IMG/VR virus record: IMGVR_UViG_2713897073_000006
DNA from: a virus
Lineage: Duplodnaviria > Heunggongvirae > Uroviricota > Caudoviricetes
DNA: 26,128 nucleotides
Strand: one strand, 5' to 3'
Made by a program: the position numbers and the translations under genes. The notes beneath the pieces are model-generated. The model had not been told where the DNA came from, made no database searches, and saw nothing but the letters and a program-made list of their open reading frames with translations. Positions 1-26,128 of the stretch are shown piece after piece. Within the stretch, counting starts at the first letter, position 1, and each line of letters opens with the position of its first letter.

Positions 1-1251
1 GTGCTTACCGATACAAAATTAAAAAACCTCAAGCCGCAGGACAAACTGTACAAGGTCTCCGATCGTGACGGGCTGTATGTAGCTGTGCTTACGTCAGGCA
101 CGGTCTCGTTTCGCTATGACTACCGTATCAACGGTCGCCGCGAAACACTGGTAATCGGGCAGTATGGGCGTGACGGTATCAGCCTGGCAGAAGCGCGAGA
201 AGAACTGATTGCTGCAAAGAAGCTGCTTAAAGCAGGCCAGTCACCGGCTGCGGCTAAACGTGACGGTATCAAAAAGATTCGTGGTGCCGAGACGTTTGCG
301 GTACATACCGACAGTTATATGAAACACGTCATCCTGGCTGACAGTACCCGCGCAATGAAACAGGCGGTGATCGACCGTGACATACTTCCGGTTCTTGGCA
401 ATAAAATGATGGCTGAAATTACCACATCGATGGTTCGTGATTTGTGTGACCGGATTGTCGAACGCGGTGGCCGGGCAACAGCAGTGCAGGCCAGGGAGAT
501 CATCAGTAGCGTATACCGTCACGCCAATGACCGTGGTCATGGTTTGTTTAATCCTGCGGCTGACATTAAACCTTCGTCTATCGCCATATTTAAACCACGA
601 GAGCGAACACTGACACCAGAAGAAATTGGCCTGTTCTTCCGCACGCTGGATGCCATTGGTGCTATGGGCACTATGAAAATGGCTTTAAAACTGGTGCTTA
701 TCACTATGGTTCGTAAGGGCGAATTCACCAATGCAACGTGGGATGAAATAGATTTTAAAAAATGGACATGGACAATTCCTCCAGACCGCATGAAGGGAAG
801 CCGGGCGCACGTTATTTACCTGCCTAAACAGGCACAGGATATATTGGTCGGGTTGCAGATGTGCGCTGGTGGAAGTGAATATCTGGTTCCTGGTCGTTAC
901 AATTTCCGGAAGCCATTATCTAATGCCGCGCTGAACTCTCTGATCGACAGAACGGTGAAAATAATAAATGAAGATGGTGAGCATATTCAGGACTTCACTG
1001 TACATGATATGCGCCGTACAGCCAGTACGTTGTTGCATGAGGCTGGTTATCCTTCAGACTGGATTGAAAAGGCTCTGGCACATGAGCAGAAAGGTGTGCG
1101 CGCCGTATATAACAAAGCGGAATACGCCAGACAGCGCGCCTACATGTTGCAGCAGTGGGCCGATATGATTGATTCATGGATTGACGGGGAGCATACGGAT
1201 CTGATTCCGTTCTCCCCGTCGAAGTTTGAGAAGTGGATGGCGGGGGAATAA
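1..1251 (+). CDS. int: Phage integrase, tyrosine recombinase (P4/CP4-57-like)
   Basis: 416-aa ORF. N-terminal MLTDTKLKNLKP...FRYDYRINGRRETL resembles the arm-binding region of P4-type integrases; C-terminal region has HDMRRT (His-x-x-Arg) and a tyrosine in VYNKAEY. Starts with GTG at position 1, so the true start may sit at or just beyond the window edge. Confidence 0.9.
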   Translation: MLTDTKLKNLKPQDKLYKVSDRDGLYVAVLTSGTVSFRYDYRINGRRETLVIGQYGRDGISLAEAREELIAAKKLLKAGQSPAAAKRDGIKKIRGAETFAVHTDSYMKHVILADSTRAMKQAVIDRDILPVLGNKMMAEITTSMVRDLCDRIVERGGRATAVQAREIISSVYRHANDRGHGLFNPAADIKPSSIAIFKPRERTLTPEEIGLFFRTLDAIGAMGTMKMALKLVLITMVRKGEFTNATWDEIDFKKWTWTIPPDRMKGSRAHVIYLPKQAQDILVGLQMCAGGSEYLVPGRYNFRKPLSNAALNSLIDRTVKIINEDGEHIQDFTVHDMRRTASTLLHEAGYPSDWIEKALAHEQKGVRAVYNKAEYARQRAYMLQQWADMIDSWIDGEHTDLIPFSPSKFEKWMAGE

Positions 1252-1254
1252 CGT

Positions 1255-1449
1255 TTAATAGTTCTGCTGATTTTCTTCCATCTCGGCTTCTGCTGCCAGT
1301 GATTCAATTTTATCTGCGAATATTGCTGACAGTGTTGCAAATTCAGCATCAGTGACAGCGGGAATTGGAACAAACCTGATCCCGCTGTGTGCAAGCATGT
1401 TTGCAGTTTCAAGGCATTTCCTTAAATCTGCTGGTGATGCCCGGTTCAT
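1255..1449 (-). CDS. Hypothetical small acidic protein (64 aa)
   Basis: ATG at 1449..1447 overlaps the TGA stop of the upstream methyltransferase gene (ATGA coupling), with GGGAG about 9 nt upstream. Product MNRASPADLRKCLETANMLAHSG...EEMEENQQNY. Last gene of the leftward operon, converging on int. Confidence 0.4.
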   Translation of the reverse strand: MNRASPADLRKCLETANMLAHSGIRFVPIPAVTDAEFATLSAIFADKIESLAAEAEMEENQQNY

Positions 1450-2096
1450 GCTGCACGCTCCCGCCCCTGGTTGTCTGTTGGTGACAGCGGAGCATTGCTG
1501 AATGCATTTGTTAATCTGGCAATATCCAATGCGTATCCAGGGTGTAGTTGCACTGCCGGGTCTTCGCACTGATTACCCCAAACATCGAAGCCATGAGACG
1601 ACTGGCGGGCGAACAGTTCAATGCGAGAAACATCGCCTAACAATTGCACAAGTTTTTCACGAACGACATCTGGTTTTCTTGAATGCTCAAGCCGCGGTGC
1701 GGTAAATGACTGAACGATCCCTGCATTAATGCGCGGAGGTAGTTTTCCCTTTACTGCAAACAGGCAATCTTCACTATTGGCGCGAGTCATGTGTCCCATA
1801 CCCATAACCAGTTTATCTGGTTGTCGACTACCACATTTTATCCATGTGAAGCCCTTCATGGTCATCAGACGGAATCCCCAGGCTTCAACAACTTTTAGCG
1901 CTTCGAGTGGTTGTGTTGGCACCCACCACATGGCCAACAGACAGTTTTCATCGGCCAAATCCCACACAGGAAGGCGGCAGATATCCATCACACTCATAAC
2001 CGGATATTTAAAACCGGCACCGCGATTACCATCTGCGGCTTTGTCCCGGTATACCCAGGGTGGATCTGCATAGATTAGTGTGTATTTCTTAGTCAT
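1446..2096 (-). CDS. MT-A70 family N6-adenine DNA methyltransferase
   Basis: 216-aa ORF with the catalytic DPPW motif near the N-terminus (LIYADPPWVY) and the conserved downstream core typical of phage Dam-like MT-A70 enzymes. Its ATG overlaps the stop of the upstream ORF (ATGACTAA). Confidence 0.85.
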   Translation of the reverse strand: MTKKYTLIYADPPWVYRDKAADGNRGAGFKYPVMSVMDICRLPVWDLADENCLLAMWWVPTQPLEALKVVEAWGFRLMTMKGFTWIKCGSRQPDKLVMGMGHMTRANSEDCLFAVKGKLPPRINAGIVQSFTAPRLEHSRKPDVVREKLVQLLGDVSRIELFARQSSHGFDVWGNQCEDPAVQLHPGYALDIARLTNAFSNAPLSPTDNQGRERAA

Positions 2097-2388
2097 AAAC
2101 CACCCCGCAACATCCTATACCGCTATAGTCGCCACGGCGAAGGCCGTTACCTTTTGTGATACATTGGTCCCTGCGAACCGCGATCCTTGCACGCTCAACA
2201 TCACCAGAAGCAACATCCATACACTGAAGCCAAAGGTGAGCGGCAATGCGGAACTGTCCTTTTTTCTCTCTTTCAATTGCGCGTTTTTCGATCTCTATCG
2301 CCGCAGGAGTAACGGCGACAATCTTTGACGGACTGCGCATTGAAACCTTGTTCATGTGATATTTTTCAAGTCGGCTTAACTTTCTCAC
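2089..2388 (-). CDS. Hypothetical protein (start uncertain: GTG 2388 or ATG 2355/2340)
   Basis: ORF in the leftward operon whose stop overlaps the methyltransferase start. GTG at 2388 is preceded by AGAGGG; the alternative ATG at 2340 is preceded by AAGG. No recognisable domain. Confidence 0.45.
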   Translation of the reverse strand: MRKLSRLEKYHMNKVSMRSPSKIVAVTPAAIEIEKRAIEREKKGQFRIAAHLWLQCMDVASGDVERARIAVRRDQCITKGNGLRRGDYSGIGCCGVVYD

Positions 2389-2497
2389 TTAATCCAACCC
2401 TCTCTGAAAATTAATGCCAGCAGATAAAGCCATGCTGAAACAGAGGCCAGGAATAAGTACCATCCTGACCATTTGCTCCAGTGCCTTAGCAGCACAC

Positions 2498-2746
2498 TCA
2501 TGCAGCGTTGCTCACAGGACGATATACACGTTGCTGAACAGGAGGCTTTTTACCCTGGAACTCTGCCGGGCTTGCTGCCTGACGTTCATCAAGCCAACGC
2601 TCAACTTCATCACGGTTCCATGCGCAGCGTTTGTCAGTGATATACCAGCGTTTAGGAAATTCCCCTGCGCGCTCCATGCGGTCGATAGTGCTCCATGACA
2701 GTGGCACCACCGCCAGGAGTTCCTTCTTACCTAATGCACCTTTCAT
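2498..2746 (-). CDS. AlpA-family (excisionase-like) small DNA-binding regulator
   Basis: 82-aa protein MKGALGKKELLAVVPLSWSTIDRMERAGEFPKRWYITDKRCAWNRDEVERWLDER matches the AlpA / prophage CP4-57 regulatory protein HTH pattern. GAGAGG ribosome-binding site upstream of the ATG. Confidence 0.75.
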   Translation of the reverse strand: MKGALGKKELLAVVPLSWSTIDRMERAGEFPKRWYITDKRCAWNRDEVERWLDERQAASPAEFQGKKPPVQQRVYRPVSNAA

Positions 2747-2795
2747 AAATACCTCTCTTGGTTGCAGTGCGGCGCGCGTGGCGCCGCGGTGGTGG

Positions 2796-3737
2796 TTACA
2801 TAGATGTTTCGTTTAATTCTTCTCGACGAACGCTGTAAACGTCGGTGGCTTTTGCCAGCAGTTCGTCATCATCTGAAAGTTTTTGTGCAATGTATTTGTA
2901 AGCTTTATCCAGTTCGAAGACAGTGCTGTAATTCATCGCTGCGCTGGTAAAGGCCATCAGCATTTCTTCTGGATCACGGCTATCCGCTTTACGCGTTTGC
3001 TCATCAGGCTTTTTCACTTGTTTAGCGTTGATCAGACTGTTCATTCCCGCAGCAGTGGTCGTTTGCGGAGTAATGTCTCGCTCAACGCGCGGTGCCGTTT
3101 CCTGTAATTCGTCTGGTGTGTAGACGCCCATGATTACGTCAGGACAGTGCAGGCGAGACCAGCGTTTTGTCGCAAGGTATGCGAGTTGTTGTTTCGGATC
3201 ACTGGCCCAAAGTGTGGAGTTTCTTACCTGTGCTTGAGACAGCATTAACTCAAGCACTCGAGGTTGATCCTCGCCCTTCATGGTTGCCCATACGCGAACA
3301 CCGCAGCCTTCTTCGTCTTTTAGAGTCCAGCCTGGTGCGATATATGGATTGCCGTTTTTGGATGTTTTCTCAACAAACTTACCGATCACGCGTTCCCACG
3401 GCCCGAACCACTCGTAGTTGATGCGATCTTTTGTTGGCGACATCGTTGAGATAACTGCGTTTACTAATTGGGCTTCATAACCTAGCGTGCCGTTCACAAC
3501 ATGGGTTTTCTGAGCCACGGCAAACGGGTTCATTCCCCACTGCGCAGCCTGCATTGCCACGGCCATGCAATCAGCTGGTTTCCCGGCGAGGTGCGCCGGT
3601 ACCGTTACGCGGCTTTGCGCCATTACCTCGGCGAATTTCATCAGTTGGTTCAAGCCGTCTGGGCTGAAAATAGTTGCAGCAGTTCCAGCGATTGCTGTGT
3701 CTACTGGTGCGTTGATGTTTGCGATGTCGTTGCTCAT
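2796..3737 (-). CDS. recT: RecT/Bet-family single-strand annealing protein
   Basis: The central region (WGMNPFAVAQK...GPWERV...LWASDPKQQLAYLATKRWSRL) parallels the lambda Bet / RecT core. ATG at 3737 has an AGGA ribosome-binding site and overlaps the exonuclease stop (ATGA). The ORF track extends the frame to 3764. Confidence 0.8.
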   Translation of the reverse strand: MSNDIANINAPVDTAIAGTAATIFSPDGLNQLMKFAEVMAQSRVTVPAHLAGKPADCMAVAMQAAQWGMNPFAVAQKTHVVNGTLGYEAQLVNAVISTMSPTKDRINYEWFGPWERVIGKFVEKTSKNGNPYIAPGWTLKDEEGCGVRVWATMKGEDQPRVLELMLSQAQVRNSTLWASDPKQQLAYLATKRWSRLHCPDVIMGVYTPDELQETAPRVERDITPQTTTAAGMNSLINAKQVKKPDEQTRKADSRDPEEMLMAFTSAAMNYSTVFELDKAYKYIAQKLSDDDELLAKATDVYSVRREELNETSM

Positions 3738-4555
3738 ATGTACATATCCTGTTTGCGTGCCCACTCAGGGCGTTTAATGATTTCCACACCGCCCCATTCA
3801 TCATTGATGCGGCATTCGTGATAGGTATTCAGATCCCGGCGGAACAGAGCGTGCCCGGCATCGACATCCTGCGCATCCAGCTCGAACACGCGTACCGGAT
3901 ACCGACCACAATCAATGCTTTCGCTCACGGCAAGAAAGAAAAAACCATGCGGCTGACCAGTAACCCTCATTGCGCCTTCGCGGTACATTGCGTCCTGCAC
4001 GTGGTAGCGGAATTCCTCGATGTGGCGTGCAAAACGGTCCATATCTGCAACCTTTTTCACGTCGACGATTACGTTGTGCTCGTTCAGCCATTTGTCTGGA
4101 CGAATTCGGCACAACTCACCCGTCTCTTCATCGTTCCAGTACATTGATGCTTCGCAGTAACCAGGTGCTTCCAACATCCAGCGTGCCGCCGGATGAGCCA
4201 TTGCGCTATCACGCATCAGCTCCAGTTTTCGCCACTGCTCGACATCAAGTACCGTAATACCCATATCCGCCACATCACGAAGAAATGCTTCTTCGTCAGC
4301 TTTACCTTGTTTTGTCCGACGATCTAATTTCGGTGAAACGATGAAGCGTTTGTCGAATTCTCCAGGTTCCAGAAGCAGACAGTGCAATGCGGTTCCCATA
4401 TCCAGTGCAGACTTTTTCTCTTCGTCTTCTGGTGCTGCCTGAACCCATTTAAGAAGCGCCGGATTCTTGGCAACCATGTCCAGTTGCGACTTACTCACGC
4501 CGTCACCGGCGTGGTAGTCTTCGTTGCTGATGTCGAAATAAATTCCCGGTTTCAT
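3734..4555 (-). CDS. RecE-like PD-(D/E)XK 5'-3' exonuclease, partner of RecT
   Basis: 273-aa ORF immediately upstream of and coupled to the annealing-protein gene. Has a D...(D/E)xK nuclease signature (RIRPDKW ... VIVDVKK). AGAGGGA ribosome-binding site. Confidence 0.75.
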   Translation of the reverse strand: MKPGIYFDISNEDYHAGDGVSKSQLDMVAKNPALLKWVQAAPEDEEKKSALDMGTALHCLLLEPGEFDKRFIVSPKLDRRTKQGKADEEAFLRDVADMGITVLDVEQWRKLELMRDSAMAHPAARWMLEAPGYCEASMYWNDEETGELCRIRPDKWLNEHNVIVDVKKVADMDRFARHIEEFRYHVQDAMYREGAMRVTGQPHGFFFLAVSESIDCGRYPVRVFELDAQDVDAGHALFRRDLNTYHECRINDEWGGVEIIKRPEWARKQDMYI

Positions 4556-4851
4556 GCCGCGTCCCTCTGCCCATCAAGCTGATCAGCCAGATCCCAGCGC
4601 GCGATAATTGCCATTGCCTCGCGCCGGTAGGCATCCATCAGTTCTTCGAACTCAGGGCTGTCTTTAGCTGCTTCCAGCACTTCCTGGCGAACTCCTTTGC
4701 CTGTTACAACGTCGAAAGTTGAGGCCAGTTGATGAAGCCGGATGGTCTCAATCAGTTCAACTTGTCGGTCATATAGCTGTTCTGACAGGCGGTAGTCCTT
4801 GTCGAATGCCAGCATGATTTTTTGAAGATTTTTCTGCTGATTAACGTTCAT
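4552..4851 (-). CDS. Hypothetical early protein (99 aa)
   Basis: ATG at 4851 with a strong GGGAGGG ribosome-binding site 5 nt upstream. Its stop overlaps the exonuclease start (ATGA). The ORF track's longer version to 4866 lacks a ribosome-binding site. Confidence 0.55.
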   Translation of the reverse strand: MNVNQQKNLQKIMLAFDKDYRLSEQLYDRQVELIETIRLHQLASTFDVVTGKGVRQEVLEAAKDSPEFEELMDAYRREAMAIIARWDLADQLDGQRDAA

Positions 4852-4854
4852 TAT

Positions 4855-5007
4855 CAGCCCTCCCATATCTCGTTATCGTTGGCCACATCGCGAGCTTCTT
4901 TGCTGACGAAAGCCCACTTAATGCCTTCCTGTAAGGTGCGGAACTTCCAGCTCATGAATCCGCATGCAGTAACGCAGTACCAACCGTTGATGATTTTCCA
5001 CTGCATA
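4855..5007 (-). CDS. Hypothetical small protein (50 aa), first gene of the leftward operon
   Basis: Hand-translated MQWKIINGWYCVTACGFMSWKFRTLQEGIKWAFVSKEARDVANDNEIWEG. The stop lies 3 nt before the next ATG, and the gene sits just downstream of the PL-like promoter and operator. Below the ORF-track size cutoff. Confidence 0.3.
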
Positions 5008-5025
5008 ACTTGTTACCTCGGTCTG

Positions 5026-5040
5026 TTACCGTTGAGGTAA
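5026..5040. promoter_or_regulatory. Palindromic operator-like site TTACCgttgaGGTAA (site a)
   Basis: Perfect TTACC-N5-GGTAA inverted repeat, 19 nt upstream of the first leftward gene and overlapping a putative -10 region. Confidence 0.6.
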
Positions 5041-5068
5041 TAATTATGCTTATTTGGTTTGGTGTCAA
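5040..5068 (-). promoter_or_regulatory. Putative PL-like sigma70 promoter for the leftward early operon
   Basis: On the minus strand, TTGACA (complement of 5063-5068) is followed about 16-17 nt later by TAATTA/CATAAT-like hexamers, flanked by operator sites a and b. The -10 assignment is approximate. Confidence 0.4.
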
Positions 5069-5087
5069 TAGATATGAGTTAAAAAAA

Positions 5088-5102
5088 TTACCCGTAAGGT
5101 AA
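5088..5102. promoter_or_regulatory. Palindromic operator-like site TTACCcgtaaGGTAA (site b)
   Basis: Perfect TTACC-N5-GGTAA, 62 bp from site a, on the other side of the putative PL promoter. Confidence 0.6.
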
Positions 5103-5114
5103 TCTATCTGGCAA

Positions 5115-5138
5115 TAAAAAAGCCGCCATGAGGCGGCT
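5115..5138 (-). terminator. Rho-independent terminator downstream of the repressor gene
   Basis: Stem AGCCGCC / GGCGGCT (5121-5127 / 5132-5138) with loop ATGA. On the minus strand the stem is followed by a run of six T (complement of AAAAAA at 5115-5120). Confidence 0.7.
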
Positions 5139-5159
5139 TACTTGCTGAAAACTATAGTT

Positions 5160-5744: not shown

Positions 5745-5799
5745 TTTCTGGAAAATCGCCTCATATCTGAATCAGAAGATGATTCAATTTAAAGCAATA

Positions 5800-5814
5800 T
5801 TACCCAACAGGTAA
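5800..5814. promoter_or_regulatory. Palindromic operator-like site TTACCcaacaGGTAA (site c)
   Basis: Perfect TTACC-N5-GGTAA in the repressor/cro divergent region, on the repressor (PRM) side. Confidence 0.6.
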
Positions 5815-5844
5815 ATGCACCTCATGGGTAACTATCCTTGATTT

Positions 5845-5873
5845 TTGTTACCTTATAGGTGAATATTTATTAT
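5845..5873 (+). promoter_or_regulatory. Putative PR promoter (-35 TTGTTA, -10 TATTAT) with operator site d in the spacer
   Basis: TTGTTA at 5845-5850, 17-bp spacer, TATTAT at 5868-5873, about 25 nt upstream of the Cro-like ATG. The spacer holds TTACCttataGGTGA (5848-5862), a one-mismatch copy of the operator motif. Confidence 0.5.
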
Positions 5874-5898
5874 CTGAAATAAATATCAGGCAATAGCT

Positions 5899-6129: not shown

Positions 6130-6150
6130 TATCCAGCCACAACCCTCTGT

Positions 6151-6174
6151 AGACCGCCATCCGGCGGTCTTTTC
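6151..6174 (+). terminator. tR1-like rho-independent terminator after the Cro-like gene
   Basis: Stem AGACCGCC / GGCGGTCT (6151-6158 / 6163-6170), loop ATCC, then TTTT. Confidence 0.65.
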
Positions 6175-6185
6175 ATATCTATTCG

Positions 6186-18622: not shown

Positions 18623-21097
18623 ATGAGACAGGAATGTATACAAGCGGTCCAGCAGGCGGCGCAGCGCACGTTAACGGCGCGAGAAATACAGAACATTGAA
18701 GACCGCATTTATCGAAATATGCGCTCCATTGCTCGTGATGACCCGATGTCGTGGCGACAACTTTCCGAATCAGAACGGTTGTATCGTGCAGCACAATTGG
18801 CATCTGAAGAATTACAGCGAGAAGCGGCATTAAAGAAACGTCGTGTGGCCCTCACTATAGCCGCACGTCAGAGATTGGATAAATTTATCAATAACTATCA
18901 AGGGGCTGATGGGAAACTTGGCGCTCTTAACCGTACTATTGCTTTTAATGCAGACGGTAAATCGAATTTCCTCTCTGTTGAATCCAGAACAAAAGCCACT
19001 CGTGATTATGCATTGAGTCAATTGCAGGAGGCATTTGAAGCAGTTGATCCTCGCTTTTTTGGCCTGTTTGAAGATGAAGCGGGCGTGCGTGACCTGGTAT
19101 ATGAAATGCGAGGGCAAAATACTGGCAATGCTAAAGCAAGAAAAGGTGCTAAGGCGTGGAGAGAAGTGACAGATCTACTTCGCCGCCGGTTTAATGATGC
19201 TGGTGGGGACATTGGCTATCTCGAAAACTGGGGGATCCCTCAACATCATTCTATGGAAAAGGTTGGGGCGGTATCAAAAGATAAATGGGTTAGCGATGTT
19301 ATAGGTAAGCTGGATCGCAAATATTATACCCGAGCCGATGGACAACTGATGAACGATGCCGAGTTGTCTGCATTTCTTGGAGAGGCTTATAACACGATCG
19401 CTACTGGTGGGCTGAATAAGCTTACTGACACCGGAATGCGAATTTCCGGAGCACGTGCTAACCGTGGTAATGCATCACGACAGATACATTTCAAAGATGC
19501 AGATTCCTATCTGCAATATCAGCAACTTTATGGCGATCGCTCTCTATGGGAAATCATGGTCGGTCACCTGGAAGGTATCAGTAAAGATATTGCACTGGTG
19601 GAAACATATGGCCCAAACCCCGATCATGTTTTCCGCTCTCTTCTTGATCAGGTGAAGGCAGAAACGGCAACAGCTAACCCGAGTAAAACCGGTAGCGTCG
19701 AGCGTCTGGCGAACAAAACAGAGAACTTGTACAACTTTATTTCCGGAAAAACACAGCCTGTAGCGAATCCCCACATCGCGCGATGGTCTGACAATATCCG
19801 CAACTGGCTGGTTGCCAGCAGACTCGGATCCGCGTTGCTGTCATCGTTCTCTGATCTTGGAACCATGTATCTGTCTGCGAAGGTTACCAACCTTCCAATG
19901 AACCAGTTATTTCGCAACCAGCTTGAAGCTATTGACCCAACGAACCGTACTGAGCTTGCGCGGGCGCGCCGCGCTGGCCTGGCGATGGAATCTCTACTTG
20001 GCAGCGTTAACCGCTGGGCGATGGATAATATGGGGCCGTCTGTGTCTCGTTGGGCGGCAACGGCGGTAATGCGTGCCAGTGGGCTTACAGCATGGTCAGA
20101 TGCGCACAAGCGCGCCTATGGCGTAACCATGATGGGAAGCCTGGGAGAAGTAGTGTCACGGACACCAGACCTTCGTAGCCTCGATGACTCTGATTTTCGT
20201 ATCCTGAAAAGTAAAGGGATTACTGACACAGACTGGAGCGTATGGAAGCTGGCGCAACAGGAGGACTGGGGGAACGGTAATAATACGATGCTGACACCGG
20301 AAAGCATTATGCGTATCCCTGATTCAGCAGTTAAACATCTTGGTGAGCCTGAACGCGTGAAATTTGAGGCAATGCGTAAACTGCTCGGTGCCGTAACTGA
20401 AGAAGTTGATATGGCTGTTATTACACCGGGCGCACGTGAGCAGATGTTCGTAGGGTCTGGTCTTCAGCGTGGAACATGGAAAGGTGAATTAACGAGAAGT
20501 GTTTTCCTGTTTAAATCGTTCCCTATCTCGGTTGTTATGCGTCACTGGTCACGCGCTATGGGTATGCCGTCTGCTGGTGGGCGTGCAGCATATATAGCAA
20601 CGTTTTTAGCAAGCACAACCATGCTTGGTGCTCTTTCCATGCAGATTACTGATCTTATTAATGGGAGAAATCCAAAGGAAATGACCGGTGACCACATGGT
20701 TAAATTCTGGATAAATGCATTTTTAAAAGGTGGCGGGGCTGGGTTGTACGGTGATTTTCTTTTCTCTGACCACACTAGGTACGGGAGCGGCGCGCTGGCG
20801 TCGATGCTTGGCCCGGTAGCTGGTCTGGTTGATGATGTAGTGAAGATTGCTCAGGGCATACCGTTAAATGCTGTGGAAGGGAAGAGTGAGCAGACTGGTG
20901 GTGATCTGGTGAAGCTGGGGAAAGGTTTGATGCCTGGTGCGAATCTCTGGTACTTGAAGGCGGCTCTCGATCACATGATCTTTAACCAGATGCAGGAGTA
21001 TTTTTCACCAGGTTATTTGCGTAAAATGGAGCAACGTTCGAAGAAAGAGTTTAACCAGACATACTGGTGGCGACCACAGGATGTCACTCCGCAATAA
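18623..21097 (+). CDS. Large internal virion / ejection protein (824 aa)
   Basis: GAGAGG ribosome-binding site. Last large gene of the structural operon; size and position match a T7 gp16-type core protein. No catalytic motif identified with confidence. Confidence 0.7.
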   Translation: MRQECIQAVQQAAQRTLTAREIQNIEDRIYRNMRSIARDDPMSWRQLSESERLYRAAQLASEELQREAALKKRRVALTIAARQRLDKFINNYQGADGKLGALNRTIAFNADGKSNFLSVESRTKATRDYALSQLQEAFEAVDPRFFGLFEDEAGVRDLVYEMRGQNTGNAKARKGAKAWREVTDLLRRRFNDAGGDIGYLENWGIPQHHSMEKVGAVSKDKWVSDVIGKLDRKYYTRADGQLMNDAELSAFLGEAYNTIATGGLNKLTDTGMRISGARANRGNASRQIHFKDADSYLQYQQLYGDRSLWEIMVGHLEGISKDIALVETYGPNPDHVFRSLLDQVKAETATANPSKTGSVERLANKTENLYNFISGKTQPVANPHIARWSDNIRNWLVASRLGSALLSSFSDLGTMYLSAKVTNLPMNQLFRNQLEAIDPTNRTELARARRAGLAMESLLGSVNRWAMDNMGPSVSRWAATAVMRASGLTAWSDAHKRAYGVTMMGSLGEVVSRTPDLRSLDDSDFRILKSKGITDTDWSVWKLAQQEDWGNGNNTMLTPESIMRIPDSAVKHLGEPERVKFEAMRKLLGAVTEEVDMAVITPGAREQMFVGSGLQRGTWKGELTRSVFLFKSFPISVVMRHWSRAMGMPSAGGRAAYIATFLASTTMLGALSMQITDLINGRNPKEMTGDHMVKFWINAFLKGGGAGLYGDFLFSDHTRYGSGALASMLGPVAGLVDDVVKIAQGIPLNAVEGKSEQTGGDLVKLGKGLMPGANLWYLKAALDHMIFNQMQEYFSPGYLRKMEQRSKKEFNQTYWWRPQDVTPQ

Positions 21098-21106
21098 GGA
21101 AGTGTT

Positions 21107-21280
21107 GTGTTTTTAATTATTTTGAGTGTGATAATTTCTGGTGGATTGTTATTTATTGACCGCTACAAATATTTTCTTAACCCTCAGACTCAAGCTATTT
21201 GCTGGTTCATCTTTGTTGTGCAGGGAGTAGTTCTTGTTGCAAGCCTTATTGAGGGGAGGCCTCTTATTTTTACTGGGTAA
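21107..21280 (+). CDS. Small hydrophobic membrane protein (57 aa, GTG start)
   Basis: GTG at 21107 with AAGGAAG 5 nt upstream, right after the stop of the large virion gene. Hand-translated VFLIILSVIISGGLLFIDRYKYFLNPQTQAICWFIFVVQGVVLVASLIEGRPLIFTG suggests two transmembrane segments. Not in the ORF track. Confidence 0.4.
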   Translation: MFLIILSVIISGGLLFIDRYKYFLNPQTQAICWFIFVVQGVVLVASLIEGRPLIFTG

Positions 21281-21293
21281 ATTAGGTGACTAC

Positions 21294-21590
21294 ATGCAAG
21301 CTATAGGATTCATTGTTTATATCGTCGTTGGTCTTTTTCAGTTGGCAGCAATTATGGCTGGGCTTGAATCATGGTGGGGATTGCACTGGATAATTGCAGC
21401 CCCCATTGCTTTCATCGTGAGCTATATTCCATTTGTTGGAGCGATTGTTGGTATGGTTGGCGCTGTGGATGTATGGCGGTGGGAGTGGTGGCAGGCTGGC
21501 CTTCTCTTCTTTGGTGGGATCATCTTTGCTATTGTCTGCGGTGGAATGTCATCATTTTTCGAATGGCTAGCATTCAGAAAAGGAACGTGA
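21294..21590 (+). CDS. Membrane protein with three predicted transmembrane helices (98 aa)
   Basis: ATG at 21294 with GGTGA ribosome-binding site; the track's TTG start at 21234 was rejected. Product MQAIGFIVYIVVGLFQLAAIMAGL...EWLAFRKGT has three hydrophobic spans and a short basic C-terminus. Followed by a terminator. Confidence 0.6.
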   Translation: MQAIGFIVYIVVGLFQLAAIMAGLESWWGLHWIIAAPIAFIVSYIPFVGAIVGMVGAVDVWRWEWWQAGLLFFGGIIFAIVCGGMSSFFEWLAFRKGT

Positions 21591-21599
21591 CATGTCACA

Positions 21600-21623
21600 G
21601 GCCGCTTTCGCGGCCTTGTTTTT
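21600..21623 (+). terminator. Rho-independent terminator after the membrane-protein gene
   Basis: Stem GGCCGC / GCGGCC (21600-21605 / 21610-21615), loop TTTC, followed by TTGTTTTT. Confidence 0.7.
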
Positions 21624-21783
21624 AACGAATGCCACCGCCTCCCGGGCGGGAATCCGCAGAACGCCCACCGCAGCGGGAGCCGTCAGCGGCAGTATCGCTG
21701 TCGTGCTGACAACGACCGGCAAAGGCCTGAGTTGAAGCTACCAGAGACAACAAAACGAACAGTGCAGCAAATGCTTTTTTCAT
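21622..21783 (-). CDS. Small secreted peptide with signal sequence (53 aa)
   Basis: ATG at 21783. Product MKKAFAALFVLLSLVASTQAFA|GRCQHDSDTAADGSRCGGRSADSRPGGGGIR has a Sec-type signal with AxA site and two Cys in the mature part. It has its own promoter-like element upstream. Confidence 0.35.
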   Translation of the reverse strand: MKKAFAALFVLLSLVASTQAFAGRCQHDSDTAADGSRCGGRSADSRPGGGGIR

Positions 21784-21796
21784 TGTGAAATTTCCA

Positions 21797-21824
21797 TCTA
21801 TAAGCCACCTCAATGTGGCGTCAA
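21797..21824 (-). promoter_or_regulatory. Putative sigma70 promoter for the small secreted-peptide gene
   Basis: On the minus strand, TTGACG (complement of 21819-21824), 16-nt spacer, TATAGA (complement of 21797-21802). The spacer contains the inverted repeat GCCAC-N6-GTGGC. Confidence 0.4.
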
Positions 21825-21855
21825 TGAGTGTAGCACTGACTTTTGTTTCGTCCAC

Positions 21856-21875
21856 AAAAAATCCCGCAGCGCGGG
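21856..21875 (-). terminator. Rho-independent terminator after the 147-aa accessory gene
   Basis: Stem CCCGC / GCGGG (21863-21867 / 21871-21875), loop AGC. On the minus strand it is followed by a six-T run (complement of AAAAAA at 21856-21861), right after the stop at 21877. Confidence 0.6.
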
Positions 21876-21876
21876 C

Positions 21877-22320
21877 TTATTCTTCTTCTTCATCATTAAA
21901 AAGCGGATTGTTGTTTCCATCTGATGAAAGGAAAGGTATGTGTTCTCTTGAAAATCCAACAATGACAATTTCATTATCATTTTTTGCATAATGAATGCAT
22001 TCATTAGAATGCATTCCGCCAGGGTTGAAATTTAAGTTAATGGTATAATTCTTAAATGTGTTTGGATACCATGTTGGCCCACAATGATAATGCCAATAAT
22101 TCTCTTGCTCATAATTGTCTGAGCCTGGAATTTTATCATGGTTATCATCAACCCACGAGGGCTTGTTTTTTCCAACAAGCGCCCTTCCATTGGCAACATC
22201 CTCTAAAAACCTTTGTATGATTTTTATTTCATCATCAGTAAGGAAAGGTCCGTCTACAGCGAAAGGGGTGTTGCTTTCCCCATGTAGAAAACTATTAGAT
22301 ATTCTAATGTTAAACTTCAA
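21877..22320 (-). CDS. Hypothetical accessory protein, AT-rich gene (147 aa, TTG start)
   Basis: TTG at 22320 preceded by AGGAG at 7-nt spacing. Coding sequence is visibly A+T-rich compared with the flanking virion genes. Product has an acidic NDEEEE tail and His/Cys/Trp-rich segments (ENYWHYHCGPTWYPN, GGMHSNECIHYAKND). No family recognised. Confidence 0.55.
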   Translation of the reverse strand: MKFNIRISNSFLHGESNTPFAVDGPFLTDDEIKIIQRFLEDVANGRALVGKNKPSWVDDNHDKIPGSDNYEQENYWHYHCGPTWYPNTFKNYTINLNFNPGGMHSNECIHYAKNDNEIVIVGFSREHIPFLSSDGNNNPLFNDEEEE

Positions 22321-22340
22321 GGAAAACTCCTGATGTGCTT

Positions 22341-22508
22341 CTATTTGGAGCGAAATGCCGCCTTGAAGTCGCTAAAAGATGTTCCTGTCTGGTAAACCAT
22401 ATCCTTGTCGCGCTCTTTGCTTGCGCGACCAAGCATAACTTTTCCAATGACATCCCAGCATTGCTTGGCTTGTTCATTGTGCTGAGTACGATTTTTCAAC
22501 GCTGTCAT
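22341..22508 (-). CDS. Hypothetical small protein (55 aa), upstream partner of the 147-aa gene
   Basis: ATG at 22508 with a strong AAGGAGG ribosome-binding site 8 nt upstream, directly downstream of operator site h. Hand-translated MTALKNRTQHNEQAKQCWDVIGKVMLGRASKERDKDMVYQTGTSFSDFKAAFRSK. Preferred over the plus-strand ORF 22335..22535. Confidence 0.45.
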   Translation of the reverse strand: MTALKNRTQHNEQAKQCWDVIGKVMLGRASKERDKDMVYQTGTSFSDFKAAFRSK

Positions 22509-22520
22509 ATCGCGCCTCCT

Positions 22521-22535
22521 TTACCTTTAAGGTAA
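22521..22535. promoter_or_regulatory. Palindromic operator-like site TTACCtttaaGGTAA (site h)
   Basis: Perfect motif just upstream of the ribosome-binding site of the 55-aa gene and just downstream of a TAATAT-like -10. Identical in sequence to site j. Confidence 0.6.
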
Positions 22536-22570
22536 TATTACGCGAATCTACATCACATCGCCAATGATTA

Positions 22571-22593
22571 TTTTAAAGGCACATCCCTGTGCC
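22571..22593 (-). terminator. Terminator-like hairpin after the Bro-N gene
   Basis: Stem GGCACA / TGTGCC (22578-22583 / 22588-22593), loop TCCC. On the minus strand it is followed by a T/A-rich run, 9 nt after the stop at 22602. Confidence 0.4.
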
Positions 22594-22601
22594 GCCGCCC
22601 G

Positions 22602-23330
22602 TCAGAAGAACCCTGCCTTGTCGTTGATGTACTCCGCGTGGGTCTGGATATCACGCAGGCATTTGCTCACACCGACGATGTAGCAGAACATGGTGGTCAG
22701 TTCCGCCGCCGCGCCCGATACGTCATGCCCGTCTTCCTGTAACTGGTTCAGCAAATTCATCAGCAGTGAGTTCTCCGTCAGGCCGAGAACACCAGACGGC
22801 GAATGAATCAGGCTACGGTAGCCGGGCTTCAGTGGGGCGCTGTAGGTTTTGTTCTCTATCTTCATTGCCTGCATCACTGCTGATGCTGTGGCGTTGGCTA
22901 CCTGGTCGGCAACCATCTTTATGCGTTCTTCTTGCGGGAGCGAGTTTTTAATGTAACTTCCGGTGCGGCGGATCTGAGGAAGAACCTCACCTGTAACCCA
23001 TTTACGAAAGCGGTATGGGATAGTGCCTGGTGTCACCGCATCGCGGCAGCGGAGGATCAGTGTGTAGAGGCCTGACTCGTTGATAATATTGGTTTCGCCT
23101 TGACGGCCTAAGTTAAATTTAGCCCTTTCATCATCATCAAGAGATTTTATTGACATAGTGGGGTTTGTCAGTTGAAGAGCTTTAATAACGTCTTTGGCAA
23201 CAAACCAAGGATTAATCGCAAATCCAACTCTCCTCAGAGTTATAACGCTCAAACGCTTTACACATACTTTGTGTTGGTGCTGGAGGGCGTTCAAGGGCAG
23301 CCATGACTTGCTCCCAAACATCCTCTTCAA
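22602..23330 (-). CDS. Bro-N domain antirepressor-like protein (N-terminus uncertain)
   Basis: Contains the Bro-N signature ...FAINPWFVAKDVIKAL...INESGLYTLILRCRDAV...FRKWVTGEVLPQIRRTGSY. The C-terminal roughly 90 aa are paralogous to the small protein at 24440..24697. The 5' 119 nt overlap the upstream RHH gene in another frame; an alternative ATG lies at 23156. Confidence 0.65.
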   Translation of the reverse strand: MKRMFGSKSWLPLNALQHQHKVCVKRLSVITLRRVGFAINPWFVAKDVIKALQLTNPTMSIKSLDDDERAKFNLGRQGETNIINESGLYTLILRCRDAVTPGTIPYRFRKWVTGEVLPQIRRTGSYIKNSLPQEERIKMVADQVANATASAVMQAMKIENKTYSAPLKPGYRSLIHSPSGVLGLTENSLLMNLLNQLQEDGHDVSGAAAELTTMFCYIVGVSKCLRDIQTHAEYINDKAGFF

Positions 23331-23496
23331 CGATCAAGCGGCGATGTTCATTAATAACTGTTTCAGCTCTAAAAGTCGCAGACTCCATTACAAATTGAGA
23401 TACGGACACTTTAGAAATAACAGCAGCTTCTTCGATACGGCGCTTCGCAGCTTCGGGCAGACGAAACTCGAACCGCTCCTTTCTTACTGCGTTCAT
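23212..23496 (-). CDS. DUF1778 / TacA-like ribbon-helix-helix protein (antitoxin-type fold)
   Basis: ATG at 23496 with AGGAG 5 nt upstream. The 94-aa product MNAVRKERFEFRLPEAAKRRIEEAAVISKVSVSQFVMESATFRAETVINEHRRLIVEEDVWEQVMAALERPPAPT matches the DUF1778 antitoxin pattern. No GNAT toxin gene follows. Confidence 0.75.
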   Translation of the reverse strand: MNAVRKERFEFRLPEAAKRRIEEAAVISKVSVSQFVMESATFRAETVINEHRRLIVEEDVWEQVMAALERPPAPTQSMCKAFERYNSEESWICD

Positions 23497-23560
23497 AACA
23501 ACTCCTGAGCTAATGCTCACAGTGGTTTATACCACATAACGATATGCACGGTACGGGAAT

Positions 23561-23575
23561 TTACCGTACAGGTAA
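23561..23575. promoter_or_regulatory. Palindromic operator-like site TTACCgtacaGGTAA (site i)
   Basis: Perfect motif 65 nt upstream of the RHH gene start, in the promoter region of the RHH / Bro-N operon. Confidence 0.6.
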
Positions 23576-23653
23576 TGATAAGCGCGAAGAAACATTAAAA
23601 TCAACCTTATTTGGTTGATTGCGTTTAACGCTTGATCACCTGAAAGCAAGATA

Positions 23654-23668
23654 TTACCTTTAAGGTAA
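23654..23668. promoter_or_regulatory. Palindromic operator-like site TTACCtttaaGGTAA (site j)
   Basis: Perfect motif 21 nt upstream of the ATG of the zinc-ribbon membrane-protein gene. Identical to site h. Confidence 0.6.
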
Positions 23669-23688
23669 TGTTATTGTGAGGAAAAGCA

Positions 23689-24417
23689 ATGGAAGTTTTC
23701 TGGATAGTTGTTGGTGTGGTTGCGGTGATTATTTACGTTATCAACCAGAACAAGACTAAGATCTCTGATCGTACGGTCGTTAATCATAACAAAACGATAA
23801 AGACCGAAGATGGGGAGATAACGATTAATCGTACACAGGTGATAGAACACACCTCTACTCAGTTTCAAAAAACTGGAGGTAATGCGCCTAATATTTCCGC
23901 ACCTCCTGCTTATGATAGTGCGGTAATCCAGACATATTATAAACAGCAGGAGTTAGCAAAAGAGAGGCAACTGATTCAGCCAAAGCCGTTTACAACTGAG
24001 ATTCCACCTGGAGTGTCAACGCGTCCGGCATATCATGGAAGATTCCCTGGTGATGACATATCGTCTCAGTCATCTAAAAAAGCACCTCAGGCAATATCAG
24101 AGCCAGCAAGAATACCTTCTGTATCGCCGCAAAAAGAAGAATCAGCTAACAGAGTTTCAAGTGGTAGCAAGCAGTGCTTGCGATGCAGAATAAACCTTCC
24201 ATATGAAAAATTCAGGAAATCGTCAAAAAATCCAGATGGATTGACTAAATGGTGTGCAAGGTGTCTCGATGGCCCAAAGAATACACGCCATATGAAGTGG
24301 TGCCCAATTTGTAATGTCCGCAGAAAACGAACCAGCTTTTACCCTAATAATCAAAATGCGGACGGCTTAATGGCATGGTGCAAAACGTGCTGGGATGAGC
24401 ACAAAGCGAAACGATAG
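23689..24417 (+). CDS. Membrane-anchored protein with C-terminal tandem C4 zinc ribbons (function unknown)
   Basis: GAGG ribosome-binding site. N-terminal hydrophobic helix MEVFWIVVGVVAVIIYVI, long polar Ser/Pro/Gln-rich linker, then two repeats of C-x2-C ... (N)xDGL-x2-WC-x2-C (CLRC...PDGLTKWCARC and CPIC...ADGLMAWCKTC). Confidence 0.7.
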   Translation: MEVFWIVVGVVAVIIYVINQNKTKISDRTVVNHNKTIKTEDGEITINRTQVIEHTSTQFQKTGGNAPNISAPPAYDSAVIQTYYKQQELAKERQLIQPKPFTTEIPPGVSTRPAYHGRFPGDDISSQSSKKAPQAISEPARIPSVSPQKEESANRVSSGSKQCLRCRINLPYEKFRKSSKNPDGLTKWCARCLDGPKNTRHMKWCPICNVRRKRTSFYPNNQNADGLMAWCKTCWDEHKAKR

Positions 24418-24441
24418 GCCGCTCTTGCGGCCTTTAAATTT
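24417..24441. terminator. Bidirectional terminator-like hairpin between convergent genes
   Basis: Stem GGCCGC / GCGGCC (24417-24422 / 24427-24432), loop TCTT, followed by TTTAAATTT on the plus strand. Sits between the stop of the zinc-ribbon gene (24417) and the stop of the minus-strand gene (24440). Confidence 0.55.
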
Positions 24442-24697
24442 ACCGGGTTTGTTTTCGTAATTGTTCGGCACAATAGTCGAGATGTGTTTGCAGATCCCGC
24501 ATAGACATCTGTGAGCTGGTGACGTAGTTAATCAGTGCAGTCAGTTCGGCAAGTGGGCCATCGACATTAAATCCATCCTTATCGAGATCCCGGAGTAATT
24601 TCATCAAGTGCGATCCCTCCACCAGTGACCTGACGCCTCCCGGCGTGTGAATCCTTTCGGTAAATCCGTCTTCCAGTGGATAGTGATACCGCTGCAT
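24440..24697 (-). CDS. Small protein paralogous to the Bro-N protein C-terminal domain; candidate SOS-inducible antirepressor
   Basis: ATG at 24697 with GGAG ribosome-binding site (the track's TTG start at 24715 was rejected). The 85-aa product (...SHLMKLLRDLDKDGFNVDGPLAELTALINYVTSSQMSMRDLQTHLDYCAEQL) aligns by eye with the C-terminus of the 22602..23330 protein (...SLLMNLLNQLQEDGHDVSGAAAELTTMFCYIVGVSKCLRDIQTHAEYINDK). A LexA box lies about 22 nt upstream. Confidence 0.6.
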   Translation of the reverse strand: MQRYHYPLEDGFTERIHTPGGVRSLVEGSHLMKLLRDLDKDGFNVDGPLAELTALINYVTSSQMSMRDLQTHLDYCAEQLRKQTR

Positions 24698-24716
24698 CTT
24701 ATCTTCTCCATGCAAT

Positions 24717-24736
24717 AACTGTATATTTATACAGTA
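24717..24736. promoter_or_regulatory. LexA (SOS) box aaCTGTatatttatACAGta
   Basis: CTGT-N8-ACAG with an AT-rich spacer, near-identical to the E. coli LexA consensus taCTGTatatatatACAGta. Located in the promoter region of the minus-strand gene 24440..24697. Confidence 0.65.
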
Positions 24737-24773
24737 TCAAATAATTTGTTTGCTATCCAGCACGTTTTGCAAA

Positions 24774-24788
24774 TTACCCGAAAGGTAA
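24774..24788. promoter_or_regulatory. Palindromic operator-like site TTACCcgaaaGGTAA (site k)
   Basis: Perfect motif between the LexA-box gene and the tailspike gene, about 40 bp from the LexA box. Confidence 0.6.
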
Positions 24789-24892
24789 TATCTATTCATA
24801 TTCACAGCCTTTCTATCCATATGTGGTTTTTCAGGTAATAGAATAACCAGATATGCGGCGCAACGGGTGCTGCGACTATCTGGAGATTTAAC

Positions 24893-26128
24893 ATGACGGT
24901 CTCAACCGAAGTTGACCACAACGAATACACCGGTAACGGCGTTACGACATCATTTCCGTATACCTTCCGTATTTTCAAAAAAACCGACCTGGTTGTTCAG
25001 GTGTCTGATCTGAACGGGAACGTAACAGAATTGGTTCTGGATACCGGTTATAAGGTAACTGGAGCGGGCACTTATAGTGGCGGTGAAGTGGTTCTCCCGT
25101 CGCCGCTTGCTGCTGGCTGGCGAATTACGATAGAGCGTGTGCTTGATGTGGTGCAGGAGACTGATCTTCGCAATCAGGAAAAATTTTTCCCCGAAGTTCA
25201 TGAAGATGCATTTGACTACCTGACGATGCTGATCCAGCGATGTTTTGGGTGGTTCAGACGTGCATTGATGAAACCCTCGTTGCTTGCAAAATATTACGAT
25301 GCAAAGCAAAACAGAATATCTAACCTTGCTGATCCATCACTTGAGCAGGACGCTGTAAATAATCGCTCAATGCGTAATTATGTCGATGCTGCAATCGCCG
25401 GGGTTGTTGGTGGTTTTGGTTGGTTTATTCAGTATGGTTCTGGAGCAGTATACCGAACGTTCCAGGATAAGATGCGGGATGAAGTAAATATTCGTGATTT
25501 TGGAGCAGGAGATTCAGGTGAAGTTACAGATGCTATTTTGAAGGCTGTTGCAGCTACTAATGGCACCATTATTATCCCGGATGGAAATTATGTTTCTACT
25601 CCAACAGTAACGCAGACTCCGAACGTTATGAAATTGCTTTCACGAGCAGAGTTTAGAGGTTCTTTGACCATCAATCTTCCTGTTGGAACTGTTAACCTAT
25701 CAGAAAAGACGCTAATCAGATCACAAAATGTTCATAAACTTTCTATTTCTGGTATTACGTATTCAACTACGCTAACTGGCTTAGTGGGTGTATCTGGTAT
25801 CCCCAAATCATACCTAGTTACGCTCTCTCTGGCTGATGCTTCAAACGTTTCTGTAGGCGACGTCGTGATGATTCGTCACGATATAACGGGGACAGGAGGA
25901 TATCACATCCATTGTGGCGGATGGGTTGTGACTGCCGTGTCTGGCAAAAATGTTACCGTAAAAAACACCTGCCACCTGTCTGAATTACCAACGTCAACGA
26001 TTACAGGCGGAACAGTAGTCATACTAAAAAGTATTCTGAGATATGCCGGATGTGATGGGATTGTGGCTGCAGGTGCTGGGTGCATTAAGACAATAAACGG
26101 TGTCGCAATTGTTGTCAACGACGGATGA
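24893..26128 (+). CDS. Tail fibre / tailspike protein
   Basis: 411-aa ORF with GGAG ribosome-binding site. N-terminal MTVSTEVDHNEYTGNGVTTSFPYTFRIF...TDLRNQEKFFPEVHEDAFDYLTMLIQ resembles the conserved particle-binding N-terminal domain of enterobacterial phage tail fibres or spikes (from memory). C-terminal part is a Thr/Ser/Gly/Val-rich beta-type region. The stop coincides with the window end. Confidence 0.75.
   Translation: MTVSTEVDHNEYTGNGVTTSFPYTFRIFKKTDLVVQVSDLNGNVTELVLDTGYKVTGAGTYSGGEVVLPSPLAAGWRITIERVLDVVQETDLRNQEKFFPEVHEDAFDYLTMLIQRCFGWFRRALMKPSLLAKYYDAKQNRISNLADPSLEQDAVNNRSMRNYVDAAIAGVVGGFGWFIQYGSGAVYRTFQDKMRDEVNIRDFGAGDSGEVTDAILKAVAATNGTIIIPDGNYVSTPTVTQTPNVMKLLSRAEFRGSLTINLPVGTVNLSEKTLIRSQNVHKLSISGITYSTTLTGLVGVSGIPKSYLVTLSLADASNVSVGDVVMIRHDITGTGGYHIHCGGWVVTAVSGKNVTVKNTCHLSELPTSTITGGTVVILKSILRYAGCDGIVAAGAGCIKTINGVAIVVNDG

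Follow-up and report, generated by a model that had tools for sequence, protein, structure and literature searches.

A decaying phiV10/epsilon15-type prophage of Escherichia coli whose deletion junctions resemble a fusion of lambdoid and T7-type modules

Epsilon15, a Salmonella phage and the founding member of the group that also includes phiV10, shares a temperate podovirus layout in which the genes for terminase, portal, capsid, tail, core and tailspike are followed by lysis genes and then by the integrase gene. The ICTV genus cut-off lies at about 70% nucleotide identity over the genome. The attP/attB core of phiV10, epsilon15 and vB_EcoP_ZX5 (ZX5) has been published and is identical to ATTGAGTGGGAATGATT; the repressor sequence is identical among ZX5, phiV10 (ORF40), phiv142-3 and typing phage 10, overexpression of the ZX5 repressor blocks the lytic cycle, and the epsilon15 repressor is 42% identical to the phiV10-type repressor (PMC9782041). 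Here we analyzed the viral record IMGVR_UViG_2713897073_000006, a stretch of 26,128 nucleotides (hereafter the window), which a preliminary description had taken for a mosaic prophage joining a lambdoid early and replication module directly to a T7-type podovirus virion module. Our data instead indicate, with a probability that we place at about 96%, that the window covers the leftmost 26 kb of a phiV10/epsilon15-group prophage, a defective and decaying one that has suffered three deletions and an insertion of the insertion sequence IS100. Nothing in the evidence gathered contradicted this reading.

The first 25 kb of the window was queried by megablast against phage records, and matches were also sought in 5426 complete E. 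coli genomes. Nine phages covered at least 80% of the query, with phiv142-3, classified in the genus Uetakevirus, as the best match (97.4% identity over 92%), alongside phiV10 (NC_007804; Uetakevirus phiV10) at 97.5% identity over 89% of the window. The O157 typing phages 9 and 10, vB_EcoP_ZX5 and PAS61 were also near-identical, the group as a whole showing 97-98% identity over the retained segments. High identity to a recognised Uetakevirus member was found genome-wide, with about 10 kb absent relative to the full phage genome. Among the bacterial genomes, 620 of 5426 matched the window, 14 records at 99% identity or more, and positions 1301848-1327975 of NZ_LR882973.1 corresponded to it at 99.996%, with a single mismatch across 26128 bases.

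In NZ_LR882973.1, guaA lies directly upstream of the prophage, and the element sits between guaA and yfgI. The 17-bp att core ATTGAGTGGGAATGATT was found on both sides of the prophage (11794-11810 and 43500-43516 in locus L002): the attL copy coincides with the guaA stop codon, at that gene's 3' end, and precedes the window, and with it the integrase gene, by 190 bp, and the attR copy lies about 31.7 kb to the right of attL, just before yfgI. The same core occurs at both ends of the intact same-site prophage of strain MSB1_7C (L003) and in the attP of phiV10, and the use of the guaA site is that of Uetakevirus. Because the att cores flank both the early and the virion modules, these belong to one element, and the concern that two adjacent elements had been read as one is removed. 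Nucleotide identity, att site, a GP7-type capsid and synteny all agree in pointing to a phiV10/epsilon15-type prophage (Uetakevirus), a kind already known, rather than to a new mosaic. The native genome was originally that of a temperate podovirus of about 39 kb.

Comparison of the window by blastn with phiV10, the intact MSB1_7C prophage and phiv142-3, with base-level alignment at the junctions, gave an identical set of collinear blocks and three breakpoints against each of the three references. Relative to phiV10, window positions 1-8333 correspond to 26927-35272, 8332-12534 to 3372-7574, 12533-13996 to 9462-10925 and 13984-21100 to 12222-19338, the blocks being 97.2-98.2% identical; the first of them, comprising the early region with the repressor gene, is 97.9% identical. 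This comparison with temperate podovirus prophages, which the preliminary description had proposed, yielded phiV10-type identity and three deletion breakpoints at once.

Junction 1 (8332-8335, cut at 8333/8334) carries a 2-bp microhomology, TC, and corresponds to a gap of 7203 bp relative to phiV10 and of 6146 bp relative to the intact MSB1_7C prophage. The break interrupts the DUF1064 gene within codon 42 and p06 within codon 6. To its left, positions 8211-8333 (plus strand) hold the N-terminal remnant, codons 1-41 of 114, of the DUF1064 gene (phiV10 p45), as identified by tblastn, phrog_190 and a RefSeq pseudogene flag; to its right, positions 8334-8523 (plus strand) hold codons 6-68 of epsilon15-gp3/phiV10-p06 (phrog_831, function unknown; junction alignment and tblastn), a remnant with neither start codon, ribosome-binding site nor promoter. 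The gp7.3-like gene with which the late operon had been said to begin is consequently a deletion chimera, in which the DUF1064 codons run out of frame into those of p06; small pre-portal proteins of this kind may resemble T7 gp6.7. As judged against the intact MSB1_7C prophage, deletion 1 removed the remainder of the DUF1064 gene, five nin-like genes (one hypothetical, Ead/Ea22-like, DUF551, another hypothetical and ASCH), a phrog_536 'transcriptional regulator', terS (PF03592), terL (phrog_2), Gp49, a tRNA-Arg gene, and the p06 promoter region together with the first five p06 codons. In phiV10, phiv142-3 and about 97% of such E. coli prophages, the P-like gene and the portal gene are 6-7 kb apart, with the nin-like genes, regulator, terS, terL, Gp49 and often tRNA-Arg between them in intact relatives.

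Profile searches agreed with the preliminary description that terminase, lysis and recognisable N or Q genes are lacking between P and portal in the window, and this absence had been read as native: a lambdoid early module abutting a T7-ordered virion module, the terminase following past the fibre gene and the late genes transcribed from a promoter at 8131-8207. The lack of any N, Q or terminase gene in the window accords with such a mosaic, as do a portal of family PF12236, a p17 homologue named 'virion core protein, T7 gp14 family' by RefSeq, and the order portal, scaffold, capsid, adaptor, nozzle, core and fibre, which resembles that of T7. However, the 8333/8334 cut lies within two genes that are complete in relatives, relatives at 97-98% identity have terS and terL upstream of the portal, and the deleted segment is where the structural genes natively have their promoter region, which includes an operator of its own. 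The join between P and portal is a lineage-specific deletion junction. Because four open reading frames are cut by the junctions, the converse history, in which an ancestor resembling the window gained the intact phiV10 arrangement by insertion, is implausible.

Junction 2 (12533-12536, cut at 12534/12535) likewise carries a 2-bp microhomology, TA, and cuts the Bbp16 cement gene and the nozzle gene; the 1887 bp lost comprise the cement C-terminus, p12, the gp10 capsid staple, the adaptor (p14) and 133 nozzle codons. The truncated Bbp16-family capsid cement gene retains 93 of 145 codons at 12261-12534 (plus strand; Pfam Bbp16, tblastn) and then runs out of frame to a stop at 12593. At junction 3 (13984-13996), a 13-bp imperfect microhomology, TACCGG(A/C)(A/G)CTGAT, marks the loss of about 1.3 kb covering the nozzle C-terminus, p16 and 75 codons of p17. 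The segment between these two junctions and the sequence beyond it form a chimeric open reading frame at 12535-14305 (plus strand; phrog_376, phrog_418, tblastn), in which nozzle residues 134-628 are joined in frame to residues 76-181 of a core protein, the p17 homologue of the RefSeq 'virion core protein, T7 gp14 family'. What had been described as a 585-residue 'tail' reading frame (12548-14305) is this nozzle/core fusion. The full-length nozzle protein matches the 8ck1 chain 'Tail Nozzle'.

The right end of the window contains a further lesion. The tail-fibre/tailspike gene (PHROG) begins at 24893 on the plus strand and its first 1220 bases, to 26112, are present, followed at 26113-26128 by the left terminus of IS100, recognised from its terminal inverted repeats and the L002 annotation. 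This 1954-bp element splits the fibre gene at 26112/26113 and is bordered by a 5-bp target duplication, ATTGT. The fibre N-terminus that had been reported is real from 24893 onward, but the reading frame (24893-26128) ends at a TGA at 26126-26128, within the first 16 bases of IS100. Beyond the window, RefSeq annotates IS100, the remainder of the fibre gene, two holin-like genes, a GH19 endolysin, a DUF2514 spanin, attR and yfgI. Extension on both sides recovered attL, attR and the lysis genes, but not a terminase.

A terminase beyond the right edge had been predicted; its normal place in this group is upstream of the portal, and none was detected by tblastn in the prophage or its flanks. When all 18 proteins of the missing segments were searched by tblastn against the whole 49-kb prophage locus, only five truncated remnants were recovered, and terS, terL, Gp49, the regulator, the staple, the adaptor and p16 were all absent from it; survival of the terminase or of other lost genes in a diverged form was rejected on this search. 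The RefSeq pseudogene flags fall on the genes of these same five remnants. The packaging and virion gene set is incomplete, with nozzle, cement, core and DUF1064 genes truncated and the fibre gene split by IS100, and the genes outside the lesions have the lengths seen in functional phages. A renewed search of the window for antiterminator or terminase homologues by profile searches and tblastn also found none. With IS100, fibre, lysis genes and attR to the right and no terminase there by annotation or tblastn, the junction alignment, the right-flank annotation and the tblastn survey of the whole locus together refute a native fusion of the two modules, which we regard as highly improbable.

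To follow the distribution of the lesions, 260-bp probes centred on each junction were searched against all complete E. coli genomes. Junction 1 was contiguous in 15 of 531 genomes with any match (14 exact and 1 in a different two-piece arrangement), junction 2 in 7 of 526 and junction 3 in 14 of 523; in the remaining genomes, the probe halves were typically found at separate places (median two per genome). The junctions could in principle be draft mis-joins, but between 7 and 14 complete genomes, each sequenced independently, share them at 100% identity and in a nested distribution, which rules out an assembly artefact and leaves it a negligible probability.

All 14 genomes carry both deletion 1 and deletion 3, and two sister strains represent intermediate stages of decay. 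FORC_031 (L005), 99.98% identical, has these two deletions only: its 1887-bp segment is intact, its fibre gene is uninterrupted at 2601 bp, and a single ATTGT marks the empty IS100 target. E8 (L006), also 99.98% identical, has deletions 1 and 3, keeps the deletion 2 segment, and carries ISEc23 (IS66 family) in the major capsid gene. These patterns indicate that deletions 1 and 3 came first, that deletion 2 and IS100 followed in one sub-branch, and that the ISEc23 insertion arose independently in another. The decay is recent, because the genes outside the lesions retain functional-phage lengths. In strain CEA601S (NZ_CP166713.1, 2835820-2836551), the DUF1064 and p06 flanks are only about 730 bp apart, which looks like a separate, independent deletion of the terminase region.

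The nested pattern also bears on whether the element has been retained for a function, either as a satellite-like element exploiting a co-resident or incoming Uetakevirus for terminase and tails, or as a domesticated one providing immunity or other functions to its host. Its fixation in 14 closely related genomes, the full length of all genes outside the lesions and the intact repressor and operators would fit such a role. Conversely, sister strains continue to gain inactivating events (deletion 2, IS100, and the ISEc23 insertion in the capsid gene), as in neutral decay; terS has been lost, probably along with any packaging site close to it; and PADLOC analysis of the accessory genes matched no defence family except the MT-A70 methyltransferase, giving no sign of defence-system cargo. 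We consider retention for a function improbable.

Collectively, these results show that a temperate podovirus genome of about 39 kb underwent three deletions by illegitimate recombination at microhomologies of 2-13 bp. Deletion 1 removed the packaging genes, the regulator, the structural-operon promoter and the start of p06; deletion 2 took out p12, the staple and the adaptor together with the C-terminus of the cement and the N-terminus of the nozzle; and deletion 3 fused the nozzle to a core protein, with IS100 subsequently entering the tail-fibre gene. Deletion 1 also placed the repressor-controlled early promoter at 8131-8207 directly before the portal-capsid operon, a juxtaposition that misleadingly makes a lambdoid module seem joined to a T7-type virion module. 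As predicted from gene content, such a prophage could neither package DNA nor build tails. The immunity functions (repressor and operators) and the integrase, recombination, replication and lysis genes appear to be intact, so the prophage may still render its host immune and, upon SOS induction, might perhaps excise, replicate or cause lysis.

The control regions of the element are organised around a palindrome, TTACC-N5-GGTAA. With one mismatch allowed, 11 sites were found in the window against 0.41 expected, a number reached in 0 of 100 shuffles. They are located at 5026-5040, 5088-5102, 5800-5814, 5848-5862, 6185-6199, 8131-8145, 8193-8207, 22521-22535, 23561-23575, 23654-23668 and 24774-24788, and all 11 lie between annotated genes. 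The same motif occurs at 14 sites in phiV10 and at 15 in L003, one of the latter in flanking chromosomal DNA. These sites are probably the operators of the 194-residue repressor described below. Two adjacent sites resembling the palindrome were also observed inside the 5' end of terS, at 87-101 and 105-119 in phiV10 and at 18219-18233 and 18237-18251 in L003; they might serve in packaging-site recognition or in regulation, and their segment is deleted in the window.

Two of the operator pairs share one promoter geometry. A PL-like leftward early promoter, TTGACA-17-AATTAT (5026-5102, minus strand; promoter scan), and an operator-flanked promoter, TTGATT-17-TTTAAT (8131-8207, plus strand; motif search, sequence and four-phage alignment), both show the succession operator, 19 nt, -35, 17 nt, -10 and operator, with the operators at 5026/5088 and 8131/8193 spaced 62 bp apart and the last base of the -10 hexamer serving as the first base of the second operator. 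A simple sigma-70 scan, which demands A at position 2 of the -10 hexamer, gave no promoter at 8131-8207, and TTGATT-17-TTTAAT was read by eye. In the four-phage alignment of this region, the half-sites and both hexamers were invariant and the central 5 bp of the operators variable, a pattern expected of a protein-binding site. A further pair of operators (5800-5862) occupies the divergent repressor/cro control region, the second overlapping a rightward promoter, TTGTTA-17-TATTAT.

The operator-flanked promoter at 8131-8207 is genuine, as had been proposed, but natively it drives the genes from DUF1064 to terL and not the late genes. In intact relatives, the genes that follow it are DUF1064, the nin-like genes, terS and terL; next come a terminator and a reverse-oriented Gp49 gene and then the structural operon with a control region of its own, whose operator site, about 105 bp upstream of p06 (3252 in phiV10, 21384 in L003), is deleted in the window. 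By sequence comparison, 8131-8207 is an early promoter of PL type rather than the native late promoter, fused to the virion genes by deletion 1. The expectation that host RNA polymerase transcribes these genes was borne out insofar as no phage RNA polymerase family was matched among all scanned open reading frames (Pfam, PHROGs) and none is annotated in phiV10 or phiv142-3; in the absence of such a gene, the host polymerase is the likely transcriber.

Two further motifs accompany the operators. The 9-mer TATGTGGTT is present in exactly three copies in each intact relative, always on the plus strand and 46-58 bp after an operator site, where it precedes the packaging and structural units and the fibre gene (L003 15203, 21442 and 41185; phiV10 3310, 20923 and 35118); the window holds copies at 8179-8187 and 24820-24828. 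It may be a shared promoter or activator element. An exact match to the LexA box pattern, CTGTATATTTATACAG, was found at 24719-24734, 22 bp upstream of an 85-residue gene (24440-24697, minus strand), and is conserved in loci L002 to L006; a stricter pattern, CTGTAT-N4-ATACAG, had no match in phiV10. The 85-residue protein shows homology to the BRO-N anti-repressor in the C-terminal part of the latter, with phrog_450, phrog_15539 and phrog_1760 common to both, and is a candidate SOS-controlled mini-anti-repressor for a repressor without a cleavage domain. A tentative scheme, possible but in our view somewhat less probable than not, would dispense with antitermination: each operon would be under direct silencing by a repressor that is not cleaved, and the LexA-controlled mini-anti-repressor would mediate SOS induction. 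Its parts would be the operator at essentially every transcription unit, the twin 62-bp geometry, TATGTGGTT at the three rightward units and the LexA box.

The early region (1-8093) conforms to the preliminary description, whose P4-type integrase, RecT with a RecE-like nuclease, repressor/Cro-like pair and O/P-like genes were confirmed by profile searches. The P4-type tyrosine integrase gene occupies 1-1251 (plus strand; Pfam Arm-DNA-bind_3, Phage_int_M and Phage_integrase). It is followed by a leftward early operon (1255-5006, minus strand; Pfam and the RefSeq annotation of the identical locus) encoding DUF1382, MT-A70 methyltransferase, PerC-like, AlpA-like helix-turn-helix (HTH), RecT (2796-3737) and PD-(D/E)XK (RecE-like, DUF3799; 3734-4555) proteins, the last two placed by profile searches, together with two small hypothetical genes. 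The 194-residue HTH repressor (5160-5744, minus strand) matches Pfam HTH_3, weakly a YdaS-type HTH, and PHROG transcriptional regulator/repressor families, and no peptidase domain was detected in it by profile searches. Facing it, the rightward early operon (5899-8093, plus strand; Pfam, PHROG and terminator scan) comprises a Cro-like gene (5899-6129; phrog_35), a terminator with an operator (6151-6199; terminator scan), a small gene (6280-6480), a DnaT/HTH_36 'O-like' initiator gene (6496-7311; Pfam) and a lambda-P-like helicase loader gene (7308-8093; PF06992 Phage_lambda_P, E=1.5e-56), all on the plus strand. Scans of the window for tRNA genes and Rfam families found nothing.

The head genes at 8538-12209 are intact, as indicated by Pfam PF12236, PF25181 and PF20911 and by phrog_332 and phrog_458. 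All on the plus strand, they encode the portal (8538-10217; PF12236 'bacteriophage head to tail connecting protein', E=1.8e-187, and E=1.4e-178 against the solved-structure portal 8ck0), a Bbp19-like protein (10214-10510), a protease/scaffold (10513-11208) and an epsilon15 GP7-type major capsid protein (11223-12209; PF20911, E=1.2e-149). Of the epsilon15-type head parts, the GP7 capsid gene is thus intact in the window, the cement truncated and the staple deleted; cement and staple are kept in FORC_031. Three large virion/ejection proteins of 837, 600 and 824 residues (14305-21097, plus strand; phrog_992 along with families labelled endolysin and tail injection transglycosylase, phrog_1145, and phrog_684) are intact, with lengths equal to those of phiV10 p18-p20. 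NCBIfam gave zero matches on ten virion proteins, as did Pfam on the large virion proteins and on the relatives' terL, for which PHROGs were used instead.

The accessory region (21107-24697, both strands), delineated by profile searches, includes small membrane proteins, the BRO-N anti-repressor (22602-23252, minus strand) and the 85-residue gene mentioned above. Overlapping the BRO-N gene is a TacA/DUF1778 antitoxin-like open reading frame (23212-23496, minus strand; Pfam TacA1, E=4e-20), which has no adjoining GNAT toxin gene; the segment at about 23213-23558 differs in the intact MSB1_7C prophage. A 242-residue protein (23689-24417, plus strand; phrog_6762), preceded by two operator sites, resembles, in a zinc-finger-like stretch at its C-terminus, families that carry the labels endonuclease VII, Lar-like and HNH.

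The significance of these findings lies mainly in correct annotation, the locus being a textbook case of stepwise prophage decay, in which nested deletions and insertion sequences accumulated in a single E. coli lineage. When a genome is read without comparison, a junction left by a deletion can be mistaken for a novel fusion of modules, and where terminase or lysis genes are missing between modules, comparison with intact relatives should come first. The regulatory motifs are the only possibly new content, and part of it may already be contained in the genome papers on epsilon15 and phiV10; only what was observed on the operator, the LexA box and the 9-mer might merit a short follow-up, and it could aid work on how lysogeny is controlled in Uetakeviruses, a group common in E. 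coli, where about 10% of complete genomes have a match.

Among known systems, phiV10 and its close relatives agree with the element in gene order, attP core, guaA site, operator palindrome and promoter geometry; relative to this group, the window lacks about 10 kb through its three deletions and carries IS100 in the fibre gene. RecE-like and RecT proteins are encoded by two genes in the window, phiv142-3 and the MSB1_7C prophage but by a single fused gene in phiV10. The accessory region (21.1-24.4 kb) and the receptor-binding part of the fibre also differ, and no O-acetyltransferase is annotated in the window's prophage. The epsilon15 side is more distant, related Salmonella phages showing about 78% identity over about 59% of the window, although the window's capsid falls in the Pfam family built on epsilon15 GP7 (PF20911) and the phiV10 annotations map most genes onto epsilon15 genes.

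The resemblance to T7 and the Autographiviridae consists of the PF12236 portal, the adaptor and nozzle, ejected internal core proteins and a T7-like order after the portal. PF12236 is a family that we take to be that of T7 gp8-type portals, and a gp8-type portal was found together with gp11/gp12-type adaptor and nozzle, a similarity taken from protein families and solved structures. The relatives' p14 and p15 match the 8ck1 chains 'Connector Protein' and 'Tail Nozzle', p14 also matches phrog_9239 'tail tubular protein', and the portal's sequence resembles solved T7-like portals only marginally (cyanophage P-SCSP1u, E=1.8e-5). In portal family and in adaptor/nozzle/core arrangement the virion module agrees with T7, as first described, but unlike T7, the element is temperate, with integrase, repressor and att sites instead of a strictly lytic lifestyle, has no phage RNA polymerase, and belongs to a group whose terS and terL lie upstream of the portal and not after the fibre at the right end.

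With lambdoid phages, the element shares a lambda-type replication module with a lambda-P homologue, a divergent repressor/cro pair with operators and a RecT-type recombination module, as well as the Ead/Ea22-like nin-region genes present in its intact relatives. It differs from them in a repressor without a peptidase domain, a lysis cassette far to the right beside attR, an unrelated virion module and an initiator with HTH_36 and DnaT domains rather than the lambda O family. Neither the window nor the deleted segment gave a family match for N or Q antiterminators, of which very divergent forms could escape profile searches, and instead of lambdoid N/Q control, TTACC-N5-GGTAA sites occupy nearly every intergenic control region. 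The description 'lambda-like early genes with a T7-like virion core' is fair for the whole phage group to which this decaying prophage belongs, and this make-up is already known for epsilon15-like phages.

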